Shown piece after piece: positions 3,931 to 62,215 of a stretch of 64,000 nt of DNA (within the stretch, counting starts at the first letter, position 1; every line of letters starts with the position of its first letter). The DNA lies in contig OY969474.1 of NCBI GenBank assembly GCA_963700145.1, positions 1,440,001 through 1,504,000 on the forward strand, written 5' to 3'. The stretch comes from an uncultured Acidobacteriota bacterium. Its GTDB lineage: Bacteria > Acidobacteriota > Thermoanaerobaculia > Multivoradales > UBA5704. Made by a program: the position numbers and the translations under genes. The notes beneath the pieces are model-generated. The model did not search any database, was not told the origin of the DNA, and worked only from the letters and a program-made list of their open reading frames with translations.

Positions 3931-4863
3931 TCACTTTTCCACGGGGACCGCCAACCGTTCGAGGACGCGGGCCGCCCTCGGCAACTCGCGGGGCGGCGTT
4001 TTCCACTCTCGACCCACCTGTGCCTGATGTTTCCCGGGACTGCTCCAGTGGACGAAGACCCAGTCCACCGGGTCGAGCCAGCCCTTGTGGGGCGGCCGGG
4101 CGGACTGCCTCAGGCTGGCGACGAGGCCGCCCTCGAAGCGGACCACATGCAGCGGCAGGAGCAGCTTCTCCGGGAACGGCCCGGCCGTCGCGCGCGCCTT
4201 GAGCTCCCGGCGCAGCAAGGGTCGTTCGGCGAGTAACCGGCGCAGCCAGCGGAGAGAGGCGAAGTAGTAGGGGCTGCGGCTGGTGCCGGGGAGCTCCAGC
4301 TTCTCGGCCGCGACGATCTGTCCTTTCTCCCGCCGGTGCGGCAGGCCGAGGACTTCGCGGACGAGCGCGGCGGCGGCTTGGTTGCGTGGGAGCGCGGTCT
4401 TCGTGCGCAGGCCGGGGGCCCAGGGCTCGCCGTCGGGCGAGGCGAGCGCGTTGTAGAGGCGGAGGGCGCGGCCGAGCCAGTCGAGGGCGAGGTTCCTGAG
4501 CTTGGGGCGGGGGTGCTCGAGGGTGGCGCAGAGGATGGCGGTGTGGGCTTCGAGGTGCATGCCGGCGTGGGGGTCCGGGCAGAGGCACTCGGTGCGGTAC
4601 ATGCCCTGCTCGCGCTCCAGCTCGTAGAGCTTGACGACCTGGGCGAAGGCCAGGCGGCGCTCGGCGGGCTCGACCTCGGCCAAGAGCACCCGCCAGAGCC
4701 AGCTGGCGGCGAGCATGGCCTGGTAGTTGGCGGTCTCGGCCCAGGTGCCGTCGTCGAGGCCGAGGATCTTGCGGAGGTAGGGATCCTGGCGGGGGTCGGA
4801 GACGACGCGGCCTGCGAAGCAGGCGGCGAGGCGGGCTTGGAGGCCGACGTGGGCGGGTTTCAT
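3931..4863 (-). CDS. Hypothetical protein, 310 aa
   Basis: Protein-like composition with GC3 bias; no family recognised; contains CLCPDPHAGMH. Confidence 0.7.
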   Translation of the reverse strand: MKPAHVGLQARLAACFAGRVVSDPRQDPYLRKILGLDDGTWAETANYQAMLAASWLWRVLLAEVEPAERRLAFAQVVKLYELEREQGMYRTECLCPDPHAGMHLEAHTAILCATLEHPRPKLRNLALDWLGRALRLYNALASPDGEPWAPGLRTKTALPRNQAAAALVREVLGLPHRREKGQIVAAEKLELPGTSRSPYYFASLRWLRRLLAERPLLRRELKARATAGPFPEKLLLPLHVVRFEGGLVASLRQSARPPHKGWLDPVDWVFVHWSSPGKHQAQVGREWKTPPRELPRAARVLERLAVPVEK

Positions 4864-4923: not shown

Positions 4924-5307
4924 CTACTTCGTCGCCGCCGGAGTGGGCTCCGACGCCGGTGCCGGCGGCGGGGTCTCGGGCTTCTTCGTGCGCCGCCCGC
5001 CGCGCGGCCGGAGGCCGAACTCGTGGAGCACCTTGTTCTTGGTGCCAAACTGACCGCGCAGGGCGGCGTCGGCCTGGCTGCGCAGCTCGACGCCGCGGGC
5101 CTCGGCTCGCCGGCGCTTCTCGTTGGTCTCCCGCAGGCGCGCGGTGTAGATCTCCTGCTGGGTCTCGAGGCCCCGGGTCTCCGCGAGCCAGGCTTCGAGG
5201 TCGGTCTGCAGCGGCTCGAGAAGCGGGATCTCGGGCAGGCGCGCCTTGAGGTTGGTGCTCAGGATGTCCATCGCCGCGATGAGGTTGATCAGGTTCCGGT
5301 CAGGCAT
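4924..5307 (-). CDS. Small coiled-coil protein with basic/Pro-rich tail (FGxKxxxLxEFG motif)
   Basis: SD AAGGAG upstream; helical heptad pattern; tail RPRGGRRTKKPETPPP. Confidence 0.8.
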   Translation of the reverse strand: MPDRNLINLIAAMDILSTNLKARLPEIPLLEPLQTDLEAWLAETRGLETQQEIYTARLRETNEKRRRAEARGVELRSQADAALRGQFGTKNKVLHEFGLRPRGGRRTKKPETPPPAPASEPTPAATK

Positions 5308-5392
5308 GGGGGCTCTCCTTCAATCCAGACAGTGGACGAAAGCGCCAAGCGGAGGATTCCGCCGGCGCGGGTGAGAGGGAGGGGCGGCGGGG

Positions 5393-5665
5393 GAAGCCTC
5401 GCCACGCGTTGGCGAAGCTTCCCTTTTCAAGAGCGAAGCTTCCCCACCGGAAAGCGAAGCTTGGCTGTTCAAAGGGGAAGCTTTCCCGTCCGAGAGCGAA
5501 GCTTCGCTTTTCAAAAGACAAGCTTCGCCATCGGAAAGCGAAGCTTCGCCTTTCAAGAGGGAAGCTTCGCCAACGGAAAGGGAAGCTTCGCTTTTCGAAG
5601 GTGAAGCTTCGCCATCGGAAGGGGAAGCTTCGCTTTTCAGAGGGCAAGCTTCCCCAGTCGGGAGG
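5393..5665. repeat. 21-bp-period tandem array 1: 13 units, palindromic core GAAGCTTC
   Basis: Cores at 5393, 5414 ... 5645. The 13-bp linkers alternate between GCTTTTCAA-type and GCCATCGGA-type. Confidence 0.97.
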
Positions 5666-25801: not shown

Positions 25802-27340
25802 TCAGGCAGGGCGCGCGGCGGCGAAGATCGCCCGCACGGTGTCCACGGTGTCGGCCTCGGCCGCCGGCTTGTCCTCGCGGTAGCGCTTGACGCGGGCGAA
25901 GCGCAGCGCCATGCCGGCCGGGTAGTGCGGGCTCTCCTGGACGTCGTTGAAGGCCACCTCGACGACCAGCTCCGGGCGCAGCGTCACCGTCCAGCCGTCG
26001 GTTTCGACCGCCAGCTCCTGGAAGCGGCGGGTCTGCCAGGCGAGCGTCTCGTCGGTCAGCCCCTTGAAGGTCTTGCCGAGCATCACGAACTGGCCGCTCT
26101 CGGCGTCGCGGGCGCCGAGGTGGAGGTTCGAGAGCCAGCCGTGCCGCCGGCCGTGCCCCCACTCGGCGGCGAGCACCACGAGGTCGAGGGTGTGCGCGGG
26201 CTTCACCTTGAGCCAGGAGAAGCCGCGCCGCCCCGCCTCGTAGGGCGCGTTCGTCGCCTTCGCCATCAGCCCCTCGTGGCCGCGGCGCAGGGCGTCGGCG
26301 AAGAAGGCGTCCGCCGCCTCGGGGTCGGCGGTGACCAGGCGCGGCACCGCCAGCGCCGGCGCCGCCTCGGCCAGCGCCGCGAAGCGCTCGCCGGCCGGGC
26401 GGTCGACGAGGTCCTCGCCGTCGACGTGCAGGAGGTCGAAGAAGAACGGGGTGAGCGGCAGCTCGCCGCGCAGGCGCTCGACGTCGAGCTTGCGCCCGAA
26501 GCGGCGCATCGTGACCTGGAAGGGGTGCGGCGTGCCGTCGGGCCGCAGCGCCAGCACCTCGCCGTCGAGGAGGAGCTGCTGCGCCGGCAGCGCCGCGACC
26601 GCCGCGACCAGCTCCGGCACGGCCTGGGTGACGTCGTTGCCGCGGCGCGAGTAGACCCGCACCTCCTCCCCCACCCGGTGCACTTGGACCCGCGCGCCGT
26701 CGAGCTTGAACTCCAGCGCCGCCTCGCCGAGCCGCCCGAGCGCCGCCTCCAGATCCTCGGCGGGCTGCGCCAGCATCGGCTGCAGCGGCCGGAAGAGCTG
26801 GAGGCGGAAGCGGCCGAGGCCGACGCGCCCCTCGGTCAGCGCGGCGCGCGCCACCGGCGCCAGCTCGCCGGCCAGCATCAGCGCCCGCCGCACCTCGTCG
26901 GCCGGCACCCCGGCGGCGGCGGCCAGCGCCTCGCCCATCAGCCCGGCGAGCGCCCCCTGGCGCAGCTCGCCGAAGATCAGGCGGACGAGGAAGTCCTGCT
27001 CCTCGGCCGTGGCGCGGGCGAGGAGGGCCCCGAGCCGCCGCGCCCGCTCGGCCGTCGAGCCGGCGCCCGAGACGGCGGCGATCGAGGCGAAGGCGGCGTC
27101 CACCTCGGAGAGGGTGAGCGACGGCTCGGCCGCCGCCTCCCCCGGCATCGCCGCCCGCACCGCCGCCCCGCCGAGGCCGATCCGCCCCTGCCGCAGATGC
27201 CCCGAGAGGAAGGCGACCGCGACGTCGATCTCCTCCGGCCGCAGGTGGCGTAAGAGGCCGGCGAGTGCCGCGGTCTTGACCGACCGGGCACGGCTCCCGG
27301 CGACGTGGCGCGAGGTGGCGACGAGCTCGGCGAGGCGCAT
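25802..27340 (-). CDS. ATP-dependent DNA ligase (LigB-like)
   Basis: PMLA, EFKLDGAR, LDGE, EGLMAK, WLKVK, ALRFAR; start MRLAELVATS. Confidence 0.95.
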   Translation of the reverse strand: MRLAELVATSRHVAGSRARSVKTAALAGLLRHLRPEEIDVAVAFLSGHLRQGRIGLGGAAVRAAMPGEAAAEPSLTLSEVDAAFASIAAVSGAGSTAERARRLGALLARATAEEQDFLVRLIFGELRQGALAGLMGEALAAAAGVPADEVRRALMLAGELAPVARAALTEGRVGLGRFRLQLFRPLQPMLAQPAEDLEAALGRLGEAALEFKLDGARVQVHRVGEEVRVYSRRGNDVTQAVPELVAAVAALPAQQLLLDGEVLALRPDGTPHPFQVTMRRFGRKLDVERLRGELPLTPFFFDLLHVDGEDLVDRPAGERFAALAEAAPALAVPRLVTADPEAADAFFADALRRGHEGLMAKATNAPYEAGRRGFSWLKVKPAHTLDLVVLAAEWGHGRRHGWLSNLHLGARDAESGQFVMLGKTFKGLTDETLAWQTRRFQELAVETDGWTVTLRPELVVEVAFNDVQESPHYPAGMALRFARVKRYREDKPAAEADTVDTVRAIFAAARPA

Positions 27341-27376
27341 CGGAGAGCATCCTATGGTCGTCCGTCTTCTCCCTCC

Positions 27377-27394
27377 GTATATACGCGGATATAC
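27377..27394. promoter_or_regulatory. Putative vapBC autoregulatory operator
   Basis: Inverted repeat GTATAT-N6-ATATAC, 22 bp upstream of the antitoxin ATG. Confidence 0.65.
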
Positions 27395-27416
27395 TCGACC
27401 GCCAAGGGGGAGATCC

Positions 27417-27656
27417 ATGGCGAGCGCGAAAGTCTTCCGCAGCGGCAACAGCCAGGCGGTCCGCCTGCCGAAGGAGTTCCGCTTCCCCTCCGGGGTGGAC
27501 GAGGTCGCGGTCCGCCGCCAGGGCGACCGGATCATCCTCGAGCCGCTCGCCCGCGAGGAGTGGCCGGAAGAGTTCTGGCAGGCGTTCGGAACGCTGAGCG
27601 AGGACTTCGAGCGCCCGCGTCAGGTGGCGCAGCGGCGGAAAGACCTCGCCGGGTGA
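27417..27656 (+). CDS. vapB: AbrB/MazE-type antitoxin VapB
   Basis: AKVFRSGNSQAVRLPKEFRF. Confidence 0.93.
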   Translation: MASAKVFRSGNSQAVRLPKEFRFPSGVDEVAVRRQGDRIILEPLAREEWPEEFWQAFGTLSEDFERPRQVAQRRKDLAG

Positions 27657-28054
27657 GGTACCTCCTCGACACCAACATCTGCGTCTACGCCCTGAAGCAC
27701 CGCCCGCCCGAGGTGCTGGAACGGTTGCAGGCCGTCGGCAAGGCCGCCGTCGCGGTGAGCGTCATCACGGTGCTGGAGCTGCGGCAAGGGGCTGAGAAGA
27801 GCCAGCAGGCGACCGCCAACCACGCCCGGCTCGACCTCTTTCTCGGACCCCTGCGCGTGCTCCCCTTCGACGAGGAAGCCGCGCTGGCCGGCGCCCGCCT
27901 GCGCGCTCATCTGGAGCGCCTGGGCCGTCCGATCGGCGACCTCGACAGCCTCATCGCCGCGCAGGCGCTGGCCCGGGAGATGGTCCTGGTCACCAACAAC
28001 CTCCGCGAGTTCGAGCGCGTCCCCGCCCTGCAGGTCGAGAACTGGGTCTCCTGA
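27653..28054 (+). CDS. vapC: PIN-domain toxin VapC
   Basis: YLLDTNIC, D.LIAAQA, LVTNNLREF; GTGA overlap with vapB. Confidence 0.95.
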   Translation: MRYLLDTNICVYALKHRPPEVLERLQAVGKAAVAVSVITVLELRQGAEKSQQATANHARLDLFLGPLRVLPFDEEAALAGARLRAHLERLGRPIGDLDSLIAAQALAREMVLVTNNLREFERVPALQVENWVS

Positions 28055-28112
28055 GCGCGGTGCGGCGCCGCGGCCGTGACAGACCCATGCGCCGGTCCGT
28101 ATGCTCCGCCGC

Positions 28113-31100
28113 ATGTTTTCGATCCGCCGTACCCTGACGTCCTGCTGTCTGCTCGCCTTCTTCGCCGCCCTTCCTCTGGCGGCGCAGCCCCTTCCCTGCC
28201 GGCCGTGCGCCGGCCTGCGCGTCGAGACGGCGTTCGCCGGCGAGGCGCTGGAGGCGTTGGCCGGGGCGCTCCCGGCCGGCGCCGACGCGACCGTCGTCCT
28301 CGCCTGGGAGGCGCCGCTCGACGGCTCCGCCGACTTGGCGCCCCTCGAGCGCGCGGCGGCCCTGGCGCCCCCTCCGGCTCCCGTCCCGGCGGCCGCCCCG
28401 CCAGCGCCCGCCGCCCCGGCGCCGCGGCTCATCCCCTGGCTCACACTCCCCTTCCGCACCCCGTCGCCCCTGGCGCAGCAGGCGGTGCGGCTGCAAGGCG
28501 AGCTGGACGCGGTGTCGCGCCTGGCCGCCGCGGCGCCGCCCGGCACCTTCTTCCAGATCGCCTGGCGGCCGGAAGGGCTCGAGGCGGCGCCGCTCGACTT
28601 CGCCGAGTACGCCTTCCTGCTCAAGCGGGCGGCGGTGGCGGTGACCGGTGCGCGACCGGACGGCCGGGTGGTCACCCAGCCTCTGCGCGCCGGCGCCGAG
28701 GCGGTCGAAGCGCTGTACGCGCAAGAGGTTGCGGCCTACCTCGAGGCGGTCGCGGTGCTTCCGGGCAGGCCCGAAGCGGTCGCGGCCACCGCCGAAGCGG
28801 TCGAGCGGCTGGACCCCGGGCGGCTGGTGGTTCTGGACGCGCCGCCGCTGCCGGACGATCCGCAGACTCTCCCGGCCGAAGCGGCCCGCTGGGCCGTCCG
28901 CGGGGTGTCGCTGGTCCTGTTTCGGGTAGAAAGGGAACAATCGGAGCCCGCGGAAGGCTCCGAAGGGGCTGCGGAAGCTTCCCCGGCGCCTCCGGAAGCT
29001 TCCGCTCCTGCTCCGGAAGCTTCCGTACCTCCTGCGGAAGCTTCCGCTTCGCCTCCGGAAGCTTCCGTACCGCCTCGGGAAGCTTCCGCTTCACCTCCGG
29101 AAGCTTCCGTACCTCCCCGGGAAGCTTCCGCTCCGCCTCCGGAAGCTTCCGCTCCCCCCCGGGAAGCTTCCCTACCCGCTCCGGAAGCTTCCGCACCGTC
29201 TCCGAAAGCCTCCGCGGCGCCCGGGGAGCCTCTCTCCCTACCTGAATCCTTCTTCCAGGCCCTCACCCCCCTCTCCGTCCTGGCCCGGGAGTTCGCCGGA
29301 GATCTTTCTTACGATCCCACTTCGTCTCCGCAAGGCTCCGGCGAGGCCTGGGCCTTCGTGCGCGGGGAGGACCTCGCCCTCCGGGTCATCGCCGTCACCC
29401 CCGCCGCGCCGCAGGTCGACCTCCGCTTCCCCGACCCGCTGCTCGGCAGCCCGGTGATCGTGGACGCCCCGACCGGCCGCACCGTCGAGGCGGCGGGCAA
29501 CCGGGTGGGGGGCGCCTACGTCGTCCGCCTCTACCAGCCCCGCCCGGTGACCCTCCTCCGGCTCGAGCGGGTGGAGCAGGTCGAGCTCGAGGCGGTCAAG
29601 GAGAGGGTCACCGTCGCCGGCGAGCGGGAGGTCCCCGTCGAGGAGATCCTCCGCCGCCTCCAGGCCTTCGAGGACGCCCAGGCGCGCCGCCTCCTCAACT
29701 ACCGCGCCGTCAACACCACCCACCTCCGCTTCCAGGTCGGGGCCAGCTCGCAGAGCTTCGAGGCGACGCTCCAGGGGCCGTTCTTCTGGACCCCGGCGAG
29801 CGGCGCCGACTGGGTCTGGCAGGACCTCTTCGTCAACGGCGTCCGCTGGCGCGCCAAGACGATCCCCGAGATCCCGCTGGTGCAGCCGGAGAAGGCGGCG
29901 GCCATGCCGCTCGAGATCCACTTCACCCGCCAGTACCGCTACCGCCTGCGCGGCAGCGAAAAGATCGACGGCCGCGACGGCTGGGTGGTGGACTTCGCCC
30001 CGACCGCCCTCGAGACCGGGGAGGGGGGCAAGCTCTACCAGGGCACTGTCTGGGTGGACAAGCAGCTCTCCTCGCGCCTGCGCACCCGCGCCGTGCAGGT
30101 GGGGCTCGAAGGGGAGGTCATCTCGAACGAGGAGACCCTCCACTACACGCCGATCGACGCCGAGGGGCGGGCCGCGCCCTGGGGGGCAGCGGGGAGCTTC
30201 GTCCTGCCGCTGCGCATCCTGGCGCAGCAGATCCTCTCGGTCGTCAACGCGGCGACGGTCGTCGAGCGCGAGACCAACCTGACCGAGGTCAAGGTCAACG
30301 ACCCCGGGTTCGAGCAGGCGCGGCAGGCGGCCGCGGAGTCGGACCTGACGATGGTGCGCGACACGCCGCAGGGGCTGCGCTACCTGGTCAAGGACGAGGC
30401 GACCGGCGAGCGGGTGGTCAAGGAGGGCTTCGACAGCAACAAGCTGTTCCTCCTGGGCGGCCTCTTCTACGACGACGCCCTCGACTTCCCGCTGCCTCTG
30501 GCCGGCATCAACTACTTCTCCTTCGACTTCCGCGGCACGGGCCAGCAGGTCAACGCCTTCTTCGGCGGCGCTCTCCTGACCGTGGACGTCGCCGAGCCGC
30601 GCCTTTTCGGCAGCCGCTTCGACGCCGGCGCCGACTTCTTCGCCCTGGCGGTGCCGCTCGCCGACACCGTCTGGCGCGACGACGACGAGGTGCACGAGGA
30701 GGAGGTCGAGACCCGCTCGGGCAACGTCGGCTTCAAGCTCGGCCGGCCGCTCGGGAACTTCGTCAAGGTCTCGTCGGAGTACACGCTCGCCCACCACGAC
30801 TACGGCACGACCGACAACACCATCGCCGGCTTCGTCCCCCCCGGCAACCACCTGACGCACTCGCTGCAGCTCAACGGCCGCTTCGCCCGCGCGGGCTGGC
30901 GCGTCGGGTTGGAGGGGAGCCTGCACCGCCGCTCGGAGTGGGAGCCCTGGGGGCTGCCGGGGAACCCCGACTACTTCGCCGAGGCGCAGGACTACTCGCT
31001 CTGGGGGGCGACGCTGTCGAAGAACTGGTACCTGCCCTACTTCCAGAAGATCGGCGCCGAGGTGAACTACCTGGGCGGCTCCGACCTCGACCGCTTCTCG

Positions 31101-31421
31101 AAGTACGAGTTCGGCTTCTTCGGCGCCAGCCGCGTCCACGGCTACCAGAGCGACCGCGTGCGGGCGACCGAGGTCACCGCCGGGCACCTCTCCTACGGCT
31201 TCGAGATCGGCGAGGCCTTCCGCCTGGAAGCGGTGGCCGACGCGGCGCTCGCCACCGACGAGGACGCCGGCCTCGACCAGGAGCTGCTCGCCGGCATCGG
31301 CGTCAACGGCACCTTCCTCGGCCCCTGGCAGACGGTCGTCAACCTCGACCTGGGCGTCCCGGTGCAGGGGCCGGACGACGGCTTCGTCCTCTACGTCGTG
31401 TTCCTCAAGCTCTTCCGATGA
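28113..31421 (+). CDS. Large secreted/outer-membrane multidomain protein (MucB/LolA-like middle, probable C-terminal beta-barrel)
   Basis: Signal peptide; YRYRLRG...WVVDF.P...YQGTVWVD; amphipathic beta strands ending VVFLKLFR. Start 28113 or 28101. Confidence 0.7.
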   Translation: MFSIRRTLTSCCLLAFFAALPLAAQPLPCRPCAGLRVETAFAGEALEALAGALPAGADATVVLAWEAPLDGSADLAPLERAAALAPPPAPVPAAAPPAPAAPAPRLIPWLTLPFRTPSPLAQQAVRLQGELDAVSRLAAAAPPGTFFQIAWRPEGLEAAPLDFAEYAFLLKRAAVAVTGARPDGRVVTQPLRAGAEAVEALYAQEVAAYLEAVAVLPGRPEAVAATAEAVERLDPGRLVVLDAPPLPDDPQTLPAEAARWAVRGVSLVLFRVEREQSEPAEGSEGAAEASPAPPEASAPAPEASVPPAEASASPPEASVPPREASASPPEASVPPREASAPPPEASAPPREASLPAPEASAPSPKASAAPGEPLSLPESFFQALTPLSVLAREFAGDLSYDPTSSPQGSGEAWAFVRGEDLALRVIAVTPAAPQVDLRFPDPLLGSPVIVDAPTGRTVEAAGNRVGGAYVVRLYQPRPVTLLRLERVEQVELEAVKERVTVAGEREVPVEEILRRLQAFEDAQARRLLNYRAVNTTHLRFQVGASSQSFEATLQGPFFWTPASGADWVWQDLFVNGVRWRAKTIPEIPLVQPEKAAAMPLEIHFTRQYRYRLRGSEKIDGRDGWVVDFAPTALETGEGGKLYQGTVWVDKQLSSRLRTRAVQVGLEGEVISNEETLHYTPIDAEGRAAPWGAAGSFVLPLRILAQQILSVVNAATVVERETNLTEVKVNDPGFEQARQAAAESDLTMVRDTPQGLRYLVKDEATGERVVKEGFDSNKLFLLGGLFYDDALDFPLPLAGINYFSFDFRGTGQQVNAFFGGALLTVDVAEPRLFGSRFDAGADFFALAVPLADTVWRDDDEVHEEEVETRSGNVGFKLGRPLGNFVKVSSEYTLAHHDYGTTDNTIAGFVPPGNHLTHSLQLNGRFARAGWRVGLEGSLHRRSEWEPWGLPGNPDYFAEAQDYSLWGATLSKNWYLPYFQKIGAEVNYLGGSDLDRFSKYEFGFFGASRVHGYQSDRVRATEVTAGHLSYGFEIGEAFRLEAVADAALATDEDAGLDQELLAGIGVNGTFLGPWQTVVNLDLGVPVQGPDDGFVLYVVFLKLFR
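28953..29233. repeat. 21-bp-period GGAAGCTTCC array inside the CDS (EASxPPx heptads)
   Basis: 11 perfect cores at 28974...29184 plus degenerate flanking units at 28953, 29205 and 29226. Confidence 0.96.
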
Positions 31422-51866: not shown

Positions 51867-52016
51867 GAGGCCCAACCAGTCGAACTGCGACGGCGAACAG
51901 CCGGCGGTTATCCCTTTCGTCGGTCGGTTGACGGAGCGAGGCTCGGGAGGGATCCCAGAGAGGCGGGAGCTACGGTAGGAACGGCTGAGGATAAGGGAGC
52001 AAGCGTTCCGGACATA

Positions 52017-52247
52017 TCCTCAGCGGCTGATACGACGTCCTCAGCCGCTGATACGACATCCTCAACGCCTGATACGACATCCTCGGCGGCTAATACGTTG
52101 TCCTCAGCGGCTAATACGACCTCCTCAGAGCTTCCGGATACATCCTCAGCGGCTGATACAACATCCTCAGGGGCTGATACGACATCCTCAGGGCCAGATA
52201 CCGCATCTCCAGGCCCTGGGGAGACGTCCGGAGGCCCCCCGACGACC
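52017..52247. repeat. 21-bp-period array, consensus TCCTCAGCGGCTGATACGACA
   Basis: Nine clear and two degenerate units; internal palindrome TCAGC-N-GCTGA. Confidence 0.93.
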
Positions 52248-61036: not shown

Positions 61037-61069
61037 AGCCCGCGAAGGCTGTATCCTTGTAGCGCTCCG

Positions 61070-61897
61070 ATGACGCCTAGATTCCTCTGCCTGCTCGCGC
61101 TGGCGCTCGGCGCCGTGCTTCCCGCCGCCGCGCAACCGCCGCCGGCGGAGAAATCCGCCGAACCCGCCCGCGCCGAGGTGCTGGTCCTCGGCACCTACCA
61201 CATGGCCAACCCGGGACGCGACATCTTCAACATGCAGGCCGACGACGTGCTCGCGCCCAAGCGCCAGGCCGAGATCGCAGAGGTCGTCGCGGCCCTCAAG
61301 CGGTTCAACCCCACGAAGGTCGCGGTAGAAGCCGACGTCGGCGACGACCGCATCCCCAAGCGCTACGCCGACTACCTGGCCGGCACCTACGAGCTGACGC
61401 GCAACGAGACCGAGCAGATCGGCTTCCGGCTCGCCAAGGAGCTCGGCCACAAGACCGTGTACCCGGTGGACGTCGAGGGCGACTTCCCGTTCCAGCGCCT
61501 CGCCAACTTCGCCAAGGCGAGCGGCCGCTCGCCGGAGCTCGACGCGATGATGGGCGAGGTCGGCGGCATCGTCGAGGCGCAGGGCGCGTATCTCGCCTCC
61601 CACACCATCCTCGAGACGCTGCTCTACATGAACGCCGACGACAAGGTCGCCGCGGACGTGGGCTTCTACTACCGGCTGGCGCACTTCGGCGAGCCCGGCG
61701 ATTGGGCCGGCGCCGACCTGGTCTCCGAGTGGTTCCGGCGCAACATGCGCATCTACACCAACGTCGTGCAGCTCGCCGACTCTCCGAACGAGCGCCTGCT
61801 GGTCGTCTTCGGAGCGGGGCACCTCGGCTGGCTGCAACAGGACTTCGCCAGCAACCCCAACCTCCGCCTGCGCAAGCTCGCCGAGTTCGCCAGGTAA
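61070..61897 (+). CDS. Secreted DUF5694-like (TraB/Tiki-fold) protein
   Basis: Signal peptide; VLVLGTYHM, VAVE, NETEQIGFRLA, W..RN, VFGAGH. Confidence 0.8.
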   Translation: MTPRFLCLLALALGAVLPAAAQPPPAEKSAEPARAEVLVLGTYHMANPGRDIFNMQADDVLAPKRQAEIAEVVAALKRFNPTKVAVEADVGDDRIPKRYADYLAGTYELTRNETEQIGFRLAKELGHKTVYPVDVEGDFPFQRLANFAKASGRSPELDAMMGEVGGIVEAQGAYLASHTILETLLYMNADDKVAADVGFYYRLAHFGEPGDWAGADLVSEWFRRNMRIYTNVVQLADSPNERLLVVFGAGHLGWLQQDFASNPNLRLRKLAEFAR

Positions 61898-61914
61898 GGC
61901 CGCTTTTCGAGAGG

Positions 61915-62187
61915 GAAGCTTCCCTACCGGAAAGGCAAGCTTCGCTTTTCAAGAGGGAAGCTTCGCCTTTGAAGAGGGAAGCTTCGCCATCCAAAAGGGA
62001 AGCCTCGCTTTTCAAGAGGGAAGCTTCGCCATTCAAAGGAGAAGCTTAGCTTTTCAAAAGGGAGGCTTCCCTACCCGAAGGGGAAGCTTCGCTTTTCAAA
62101 GGTGAAGCTTCCCTTTCCGAAGGCGAAGCTTCGCTTTTCAAAAGGGAAGCTTCCCTTTCGGGGAGGCAAGCCTCCCCTTGCGAGGAA
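61915..62187. repeat. 21-bp-period tandem array 2: 13 units, core GAAGCTTC
   Basis: Cores at 61915, 61936 ... 62167; linker types and orientation match array 1. Confidence 0.97.
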
Positions 62188-62215
62188 TGTCCTCGCCAGG
62201 GGACGAGGACTGTTA

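Follow-up and report, generated by a model that had tools for sequence, protein, structure and literature searches.

A tandem array of palindromic 21-bp units lies in frame within the gene for a predicted Omp85-like outer-membrane protein in the 64,000-nt stretch analysed here (the window), and it belongs to a genome-wide set of more than 100 phased palindrome arrays, of several sequence families, that together make up about 0.5% of the genome. The explanation that we favour, and regard as somewhat probable on the evidence set out below, is that a copy of a lineage-restricted array was inserted into this gene and that its palindromes would be docking sites on double-stranded DNA, their putative reader being a small protein encoded next to arrays of this kind. 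The gene and the array within it are the following:

28101..31421, forward strand: host gene, 1106 aa, with a signal-peptide-like N-terminus, an N-terminal region (aa 1-277), the repeat linker and a C-terminal region predicted to form a beta-barrel of the Omp85 (BamA/TamA) kind.
28952..29213, forward strand: in-gene array; a perfect GGAAGCTTCC (28973..29192) occurs in 11 of its 13 units of 21 bp, which are read as xEASxxx heptads.
~28926..29249, forward strand: the whole genus-specific extra segment, comprising the array and its degenerate edge units; many of its codons are atypical and end in A or T, and orthologs from other genera are without it.

Orthologs of the host gene were present in all 31 relatives searched (the source genome, G000, counted). 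No sequence match to the host protein was obtained in Pfam (PF01103 included), NCBIfam or the PDB. An AF2 model of aa 386-1106 had a mean pLDDT of 52.9, and with this low-confidence model the top Foldseek matches were all BamA/TamA barrels (E ~5e-7, TM ~0.5 to barrel-only chains); the Atlas lead for the protein was Omp85, with a high score.

An earlier note on this DNA had described a palindromic 21-bp repeat embedded in frame in an outer-membrane protein gene at 28953..29233, an interval that does cover the array, and the description held: GGAAGCTTCC is found 11 times at a spacing of exactly 21 bp. The window as a whole contains 13 copies, compared with 0.13 expected, a count reached in none of 100 shuffles, and TRF called a repeat at 28972..29215 with a period of 21 and 11.6 copies. 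A degenerate unit stands at either end of the array (GGAAGGCTCC at 28952 and GAAAGCCTCC at 29204), and neither TIR nor TSD was found at the site, which is occupied by a tandem array with degenerate edges and not by a single discrete element. EAS is encoded on both strands and five of the six frames are open across the array, in line with the few stops that had been noted. The statement that the codons are always GAA GCT TCC was nearly right: they are so in 11 of the 12 E-x-S units, but one unit has GAA GGC TCC and the final unit of the array is AAA GCC TCC. Among 1,094 long high-GC3 ORFs of the genome, taken as the codon usage reference, GAA accounts for 8.6% of Glu, GCT for 2.8% of Ala and TCC for 21% of Ser codons; as all three are rare, the trio would be expected in ~5 per 10,000 EAS tripeptides. 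Furthermore, the base preceding the core is G in every unit, whereas the amino acid of the codon in question varies among A, P, R, E, T and Q, and the 11 identical cores are accompanied by 11 distinct spacers with a mean identity of 0.63. GC3 is 0.43 in the array versus 0.96 in the rest of the gene, and the codon score -1.62 versus +0.83. When the proteome was searched for further EAS-heptad insertions, as the earlier note had proposed, no second case emerged, and the other EAS-frame matches fell in non-coding arrays. A codon-score screen for in-gene arrays flagged three of 131 arrays, all singletons outside multi-array families; it misses the array at 28952..29213 itself and is thus a poor detector.

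Alignment of the orthologs revealed a clean gap at the array in six out of six sequences from other genera. That is, a variable linker of 9-14 aa is found where the source genome has about 110 aa, the extra segment absent from those genera being ~108 aa long, and the similar Pro/Ala linker that would have spoken against an insertion was not seen. Within the genus, a soil bacterial genus, the array is present in all three full-length orthologs, with 13-22 units; the contigs of a fourth genome break at the repeat, and the host ORF is intact in four members. Across three species, GAA-GCT-TCC is used in 11/12, 11/13 and 15/16 of the E-x-S units, a G precedes the core in 12/12, 13/13 and 16/16 units, and GC3 is 0.39-0.53 in the array versus 0.95-0.98 elsewhere. 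Divergence of the in-gene array between G000 and the related genome G004 is 2/120 in the core versus 31/132 in the spacer, and for six orthologous arrays taken together the values are 61/700 and 184/769, a contrast that can be inflated by register shifts following the gain or loss of units. Freely varying codons, which had been named as evidence against a constraint on the palindrome, are not what these core codons display, but they do occur in G002, the most divergent genome of the genus: there the core is kept in 2 of 21 in-gene units and the E-x-S-P pattern is retained with a variable middle residue, and since the central codon varies freely the constraint on the core is not permanent. In public sequencing runs the best word share was 0.24, and the contigs were those of relatives at 90-97% identity, breaking at the array; none spanned the in-gene array, and one RNA-library contig covered only 29442..29694.

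To judge from these alignments, the array was acquired in the ancestor of the genus, in the linker that joins the N-terminal region to the C-terminal barrel region, and the number of units has drifted between 13 and 22 since. The comparison also shows that the nucleic acid is under selection: the palindrome of 10 bp is kept, as is its exact phase of 21 bp, while the 11-bp spacers are free. The earlier proposal that the DNA rather than the peptide is constrained is borne out by the fixed synonymous sites in three species, by the invariant G and by the non-coding arrays that share core and period. The proposal that the element can land in genes without disrupting them finds support in the clean gap and the intact ORF, but no target duplication or terminal repeats that would mark a transposition were found, and a single ancestral acquisition followed by gain and loss of units fits equally well.

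The in-gene array is one of six class-B arrays and one of 131 arrays of period 20, 21, 42 or 63 in the genome; six class-A arrays share the core with these six. Units of 20-21 nt are repeated 5-26 times per array, and there are more than 10 core families. With palindromes of 10-12 bp at an exact 21-bp spacing, the arrays are phased tandem sites with dyad symmetry: genome-wide, AAGCTT recurs at 21 bp in 106 cases, at 42 bp in 17, at 63 bp in five and at 84 bp in three, with single cases of 20 and 41. Avoidance of a HindIII-type site was considered and rejected, since AAGCTT is not depleted (368 observed versus 288 expected, ~140 of the 368 lying in arrays) and no clear avoidance can be claimed. 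Most arrays are intergenic, and several begin within ~5-15 nt of a stop codon or lie shortly before a start codon. Other arrays of the set in the window, together with a linked gene, are:

4924..5307, reverse strand: gene S1 for a small helical protein with a basic tail, 127 aa, one of 16 paralogs in the genome.
5386..5658, no strand assigned: array A5, class A, GAAGCTTC family, 42-bp super-period, non-coding, directly upstream of S1.
52016..52213, no strand assigned: array with a 21-bp period and a different core (ATCCTCAGCGGCTGATACGAC unit), clustering with the GGATACATCC family.
61908..62180, no strand assigned: array A6, class A, non-coding, beginning ~10 nt past the stop of a DUF5694 gene.

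Phased GAAGCTTC triples were found in all four same-genus genomes and in none of the 150 genomes searched from elsewhere in the class, and a reversed-pattern control gave 0. Among the matches listed by a search biased by the pattern used, GAAGCTTC arrays also occur in Sandaracinaceae and Gemmatimonadota. The small protein was encoded within 600 bp of a GAAGCTTC array at 2 of 80 loci among the matches listed, both in Thermoanaerobaculia, and nowhere within 600 bp of the Sandaracinaceae and Gemmatimonadota loci among them; the GAAGCTTC arrays of other phyla may be unrelated repeats. An Rfam scan of the whole window returned no family. Among the papers listed by literature searches, none was found to describe the phased arrays or the small protein, and none mentions Thermoanaerobaculia along with such repeats.

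The association of the arrays with the small-protein genes is new in this analysis. In 14 of the 16 copies a phased array lies directly upstream on the same strand, 26-158 nt from the start, and the array families of these modules each have their own core. Altogether, 95 of the 131 arrays fall in families containing a small-gene module and 36 in families without a linked gene, the families being defined by single-linkage clustering, which may over-merge; the paralog linked to the class-B family, that of the in-gene array, is S11, at 215624..215998 of G000. In other genera an array is upstream of the small gene at 10 of 25 loci versus downstream at 3 of 25. The small-protein family was present in all six other genomes of the bacterium's taxonomic family and was not found in any of the 54 genomes searched from 11 sister families. 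Conserved features of the small protein are an L..FG..P motif and the basic tail. An AF2 model of S1 (pLDDT 87) consists of one helix of ~60 residues. Searches with the small protein gave no match in Pfam or PADLOC at E <= 0.1 and none in NCBIfam, PHROGs matches only at E > 0.04, only hypothetical Acidobacteriota clusters in the Atlas and nothing at E <= 0.001 with Foldseek; the best VIA-align Z was 7.2, inside the stated noise for helical models. The genes downstream vary among modules, Pfam, PADLOC and PHROG searches with the 309-aa protein encoded next to S1 gave no match, and a conserved partition NTPase (ParA/ParM/TubZ) was not found downstream. Moreover, close paralogs have different cores, and S1 and S11, both GAAGCTTC-linked, are only 28% identical, so there is no simple co-variation of protein and site. 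The prediction that gene-linked and in-gene arrays drift together failed in both genomes concerned: the gene-linked array keeps the core in 10 of about 17 units versus 2/21 for the in-gene array in G002, and in 4/15 versus 11/13 in G003.

The favoured explanation can be put as a sequence of steps. A stand-alone copy from a lineage-restricted family of phased palindrome arrays would have entered the linker of the host gene in the genus ancestor. Because the unit of 21 bp is seven codons long and the core is stop-free in all frames, translation runs through the array and yields a linker of about 90-110 aa, rich in Pro, Ala, Ser and Glu. The palindromes may be two-fold symmetric docking sites on double-stranded DNA and, being two helical turns apart, would all lie on one face of the DNA. 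As their reader, the candidate is that small helical protein with a basic tail whose gene has an array of the same family upstream, which would be S11 for the in-gene array. On this view the copy within the host gene would be a satellite site, tolerated by the gene and able to lose its constraint and decay to ordinary coding sequence, as it has in G002. Pairs of the G.U type and of the A.C type are balanced on the sense strand (39 versus 34; 20 versus 29 for pairs 1-7), which was counted for double-stranded DNA over RNA. Counted against docking are the more than 10 core families, which would require many specific readers, and the lack of a recognisable DNA-binding fold or family in the small protein. 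Iteron and plasmid centromere arrays (F sopC, R1 parC, tubC) consist of ~10-12 phased repeats with inverted repeats beside a small-protein gene, and the arrays described here similarly are phased, dyad-symmetric tandem repeats that adjoin such a gene in 14 of 16 cases. Unlike plasmid centromeres, there are more than 100 of them dispersed on the chromosome, one in a coding region, with no conserved partition NTPase downstream. A bolder version, which we put forward only tentatively and hold to be doubtful, is that of an undescribed two-part system in one Thermoanaerobaculia family, with 7-32 modules per genome, each made of a putative reader and ~10-15 phased palindromes, and stand-alone arrays read in trans. 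The small proteins of this system would be coiled-coil-like and basic-tailed, each with its own array phased every two helical turns, and the stand-alone arrays, of the same core, would lie at gene ends and, in the present case, inside a gene.

A rather unlikely alternative is a selfish repeat family of the REP/BIME or MITE type, in which the arrays spread by themselves, the in-gene copy is a neutral hitch-hiker without host role and the core is kept because the spreading machinery needs it. Confinement to the genus and the many families in the genome agree with this, as does the 92.5% identity of A5 with A4 (at 1196012 of G000) over 241 bp at unlinked loci whose flanks are not homologous; yet no terminal repeats or target duplications were found at the boundaries of either array. 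Presence, absence and replacement between species would also be expected of such a family: A6 and the DUF5694 gene form a 1178-bp indel that is missing from G004, kb-scale indels abut A4 and A1, and one shared site carries a different array type. Against this, the orthologous sites of G004 show B1, B4, B6/7, A4 and A5 to be stable, and a simple mobile element would need no strict phase in its non-coding copies. Core decay in G002 and the IS elements within arrays (three of five IS3 copies) again favour selfishness. In BIME/RAYT systems, IS elements insert into REP clusters and one gene-linked copy accompanies each REPIN family, which is reminiscent of the one gene-linked copy per family seen here, but the Y1/RAYT transposase (PF01797) had no match in G000, whereas 6 of 14 control genomes matched, and the linked gene encodes a ~125-aa helical protein without a known enzymatic fold.

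Rickettsia palindromic elements (RPEs) and REP/BIME are the closest known counterparts. The review PMC10969869 describes palindromic repeat families with in-frame copies in unrelated protein genes, translated and leaving the genes intact, RPEs being single elements of ~150 bp that encode a conserved peptide. Like RPEs and intragenic MITEs, the present family is a multi-copy palindromic one with a copy in frame, an intact host frame and orthologs without the copy; it differs from RPEs in that the insert consists of 13-22 tandem units in strict 21-bp phase, each keeping a core of 10 bp while the spacers are free, and in that only one in-gene case was found in this genome. REPs are short extragenic palindromes (PMC3733652), and with REP/BIME the arrays have in common palindromes clustered at gene ends, lineage-specific families, IS insertion and the gene-linked copy; unlike REP doublets, the 20-21 bp units form long, exactly phased tandem runs.

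It is less probable still that the element works at the RNA level, as rows of pairing repeats in leaders, at 3' ends and here within an mRNA; these would act post-transcriptionally, for example as a sponge- or antitoxin-like partner of the small protein, or as a stabiliser. In 14 of 16 modules the array immediately precedes the small gene on the same strand, which is consistent with it, as are the arrays beginning close to stop codons. Upstream of the array, a sigma-70-like promoter was matched by regex in S11 and S14 and recognised by eye in S1; the strict regex matched in only 2 of 14 modules, the corresponding figures being 12 among 5000 random windows and none among the 234 flanks of arrays that stand alone. 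Predicted folds lie far below shuffled controls, with z -9.1 in the case of the in-gene array and z -13.5 in that of A6, which folds as a single long hairpin, but the cores are palindromic and self-complementarity is therefore automatic; moreover, there is no G.U excess on the sense strand, rows of hairpins would need no exact 21-nt phase, and neither an Rfam match nor a toxin family by PADLOC or Pfam was found. Type III toxin-antitoxin systems of the ToxIN type have a tandem repeat array upstream of a protein gene (PMC3401426). The modules resemble them in the same-strand array directly upstream of a small gene and in each paralog having its own repeat. ToxIN-type repeats are ~36 nt long and present in few copies, unlike the units of 20-21 nt in 5-26 copies seen here; in addition most arrays stand alone, no ToxN/AbiQ/CptN/TenpN-type match was obtained (PADLOC and Pfam, E <= 0.1) and the S1 model is a long helix.

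Finally, an ordinary peptide repeat, that is, an EAS-rich flexible linker under protein-level selection with codons uniform because of recent slippage expansion, is very improbable and largely refuted by the codon constraint and the distinct spacers: its inter-domain position, Pro/Ala/Ser/Glu-rich composition, range of 13 to 22 units among species and E-x-S-P pattern with a varying middle residue in G002 would suit it, but all 11 spacers differ, which argues against recent expansion of a single unit, rare core codons are fixed across three species, the invariant G sits in a codon with a variable amino acid, core and period recur in non-coding arrays, and the linker is wholly missing in other genera.

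The in-gene array is a clear natural case of a coding sequence under dual constraint: the palindrome and its helical phase are held both at synonymous positions and over codon boundaries, and the encoded peptide is free to change. The analysis joins three items previously noted apart from each other or not at all: an insert in a gene, more than 100 phased arrays and a multicopy small-protein family without an assigned function. If the small proteins do not bind the arrays, these would represent selfish satellite DNA of a new type, capable of being taken up into proteins where it serves as a linker. If they do bind, the arrays and proteins would constitute a new kind of bacterial site-and-reader family, and, should the two-part system be true, the small proteins would mark or control a set of loci.

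The palindromic repeat studied here is a tandem array lying inside a long open reading frame.

Host gene, window 28101..31421, + strand: open reading frame of 1106 aa, with orthologs in relatives.
In-gene array, window 28952..29213, + strand, inside that frame: 13 units of 21 bp.

The 13 units are arranged head to tail, each exactly 21 bp long; 11 of them (28973..29192) carry a perfect GGAAGCTTCC core, and one degenerate unit stands at either end, which confirms the exact in-frame repeat described in the earlier note. The window contains 13 copies of GGAAGCTTCC against 0.13 expected, and 13 was reached in none of 100 shuffles. The array is translated, in the frame of the host gene, as xEASxxx heptads; as had been proposed, EAS is encoded on either strand and stops are few (five of the six frames are open). 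The spacers following the 11 perfect cores are all distinct, with a mean pairwise identity of 0.63, so the array did not arise by recent multiplication of one unit.

The array segment has been inserted into the host gene. Host orthologs were found in 30/30 relatives by six-frame search; in other genera the matches span host residues about 1-277 and 385-1106, as pieces 3-18 nt apart, and protein alignment gives a clean gap, with a variable linker of 9-14 aa in all six other-genus orthologs examined versus about 110 aa in the source genome. Within the genus, heptad arrays occupy the same host position in G003 (13 units), G004 (17 units) and G002 (about 21-22 units), and in the fourth genome, G001, contigs break at the repeat. 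The extra segment, edges included, has a GC3 of 0.43, versus 0.96 for the remaining host gene, with AT-ending rare codons and a codon score of -1.62 versus +0.83 elsewhere in the gene.

The host protein gave no match in Pfam, NCBIfam or PDB sequence searches. An AlphaFold model of residues 386-1106, computed with 11 orthologs, is poor overall and shows long antiparallel strands in the final ~280 residues (pLDDT about 70-80). With this model, of mean pLDDT 52.9, the top Foldseek matches were all BamA or TamA barrels (E about 5e-7), with a TM of about 0.5 to barrel-only chains, and an ESM-Atlas look-alike search pointed, as a lead only, to Omp85 clusters at 0.88. Given the poor model, the barrel matches, the Atlas lead and the lack of a sequence match, the earlier designation as an outer-membrane protein is a plausible prediction but unproven. 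Immediately upstream (window 27305-28054) lie open reading frames whose translations, judged by eye, resemble those of a putative PIN-domain toxin preceded by a putative AbrB-type antitoxin.

Constraint on the in-gene array acts at the nucleic-acid level. The core codons GAA, GCT and TCC are indeed atypical, accounting for 8.6% of Glu, 2.8% of Ala and 21% of Ser codons (training set of 1,094 long high-GC3 ORFs of the source genome). The exact GAA GCT TCC triplet, said to be invariable, occurs in all but one of the E-x-S units of the source genome (11/12), and in 11/13 and 15/16 units of G003 and G004. The codon preceding the core ends in G in every unit of the same three genomes (12/12, 13/13 and 16/16) while encoding A, P, R, E, T or Q, and in the spacer codons synonymous and non-synonymous sites vary alike. 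Between the source genome and G004, differences affect 2/120 core and 31/132 spacer sites of the in-gene array, and 61/700 core and 184/769 spacer sites when six orthologous arrays are pooled, spacer divergence being possibly inflated by register shifts following unit gain or loss. The claim that the DNA palindrome rather than the peptide is constrained thus holds for these three genomes, where the core codons are near-fixed, but not for G002, the most divergent genus member, which retains the core in only 2/21 units; there the GGA...TCC arms are kept in 18/21 units and GC3 reaches 0.76.

The 5.46-Mb source genome contains many further arrays. AAGCTT sites recur at spacings of 21 bp (106 times), 42 bp (17), 63 bp (5) and 84 bp (3), and mark about 16 arrays of three types:

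Class A: AT-richer spacers, 42-bp super-period.
Class B: CCGGAAGCTTCC, GC-rich spacers, as in the in-gene array.
Class C: GGAAAGCTTTCC.

At a permissive threshold (length at least 90 bp), TRF listed 131 arrays of period 20, 21, 42 or 63, totalling about 26 kb, with short palindromic cores of many different kinds; the weakest probably include ordinary repeats. By codon score and inspection most arrays are intergenic, several touching gene ends: B3 starts 5 nt past the glnS stop and A6 about 10 nt past a DUF5694 gene. The glnS gene (glutaminyl-tRNA synthetase; C1:1579226-1582375, locus L156) has arrays of two different families on its two sides, a GGTACC-type array immediately before the start and the 26-unit GGAAGCTTCC array B3 downstream. 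Another 21-bp-period array, at window 52016-52213 (unit ATCCTCAGCGGCTGATACGAC), has a core unrelated to that of the in-gene array and clusters with the GGATACATCC family. Phased GAAGCTTC triples were present in 4/4 same-genus genomes and in 0/150 others drawn from the class (covering 68 genera, with only 3 genomes from the same taxonomic family), with a reversed-pattern control of 0. Among the matches listed for species genomes with a pattern of our choosing, GAAGCTTC-type arrays also occur in Sandaracinaceae, Gemmatimonadota and others.

Arrays B1, B4, B6/7, A4 and A5 are found at orthologous sites in G004. A4 and A5 share 92.5% identity over 241 bp at unlinked loci, the homology stopping at the array edges. 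Other sites differ between the source genome and G004, where indels of several kb adjoin A4 and A1. The DUF5694 gene (61070-61897) and the A6 array closely following its stop make up a single 1178-bp piece (window 61038-62215), in place of which G004, the closest relative, has 12 bp. Behind one shared gene, G004 (C19, L145) carries a DUF433 gene and then a class-B GGAAGCTTCC array, whereas the source genome (C1:2192264-2192480) has no DUF433 gene and a GTATCAG...CTGATAC array; a single site thus holds different array families in sister species. Arrays are also entered by an insertion sequence:

IS3-family element, 1327 bp, five near-identical copies in the source genome: C1:5033495-5034821, and others at 748329, 2946136, 4825741 and 5025156.

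Three of the five copies lie within 21-bp-period arrays, and one separates B6 from B7, which form a single unbroken array in G004.

Some arrays lie next to a gene for a small protein.

S1, window 4924..5307: small-protein gene, 127 aa, adjoining array A5.

In the source genome tblastn finds 14 paralogs and an HMM search 16. Immediately upstream of 14 of these 16, in the same orientation, lies an array of period 20, 21, 42 or 63 at a distance of 26-158 nt from the start; all 14 genes have a strong Shine-Dalgarno sequence. By blastn clustering, 95 of the 131 arrays fall in 12 families, each holding one or two such modules; that of the in-gene array has six members (B1, linked to the paralog S11; the in-gene array; B3; B4; B5; B6/7). 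Genes downstream of the modules are not conserved and differ between them; the one downstream of S1 (about 310 aa, window 3931-4863, - strand) had no match in Pfam, PADLOC or PHROG. The small-protein family occurs in 6/6 further genomes from its taxonomic family, at 7-32 copies per genome, and in 0/54 genomes from 11 sister families. In other genera an array lies upstream of 10/25 loci versus downstream of 3/25. Its model, a confident one (pLDDT 87), is a single helix some 60 residues long, flanked by short helices, plus a disordered tail rich in Arg, Lys and Pro; fold and family searches gave no match indicating a ligand.

REP/BIME and REPIN-RAYT systems consist of extragenic palindromes with one linked gene per family, as do the arrays here, but unlike in REPIN-RAYT a search of the source genome found no Y1 transposase. 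In centromere or iteron arrays and in type III toxin-antitoxin loci a repeat array adjoins a small gene, as in the modules, but the modules lack other defining features of those systems. Palindromic repeats inserted in frame within genes, like the in-gene array, are known in Rickettsia (RPEs), as described in PMC10969869. A literature search found no account of the phased palindrome arrays of the source genome nor of the small protein.

As to mechanism, a symmetric double-stranded DNA site is favoured: symmetry-breaking pairs on the sense strand are balanced (39 of G.U type versus 34 of A.C type), hence no specific pointer to RNA pairing, and exact phase is maintained in non-coding arrays as well. 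A reading of the arrays at the RNA level has some support, since the RNA folds lie far below shuffles (z -9.1 and -13.5) and a sigma-70-like promoter lies before the array in three modules, two recognised by regex and one by eye. Two results speak against a simple model of reader and site: S1 and S11 have a core in common yet are only 28% identical, the nearest S1 paralogs having other cores, and a co-drift test failed in G002 (gene-linked array core in 10 of about 17 units, in-gene core lost) and in G003 (gene-linked 4/15, more degenerate than in-gene 11/13). The insertion into the host gene and the nucleic-acid-level constraint on the array stand as established, and of three candidate mechanisms the reading of the arrays as putative docking sites is the best.
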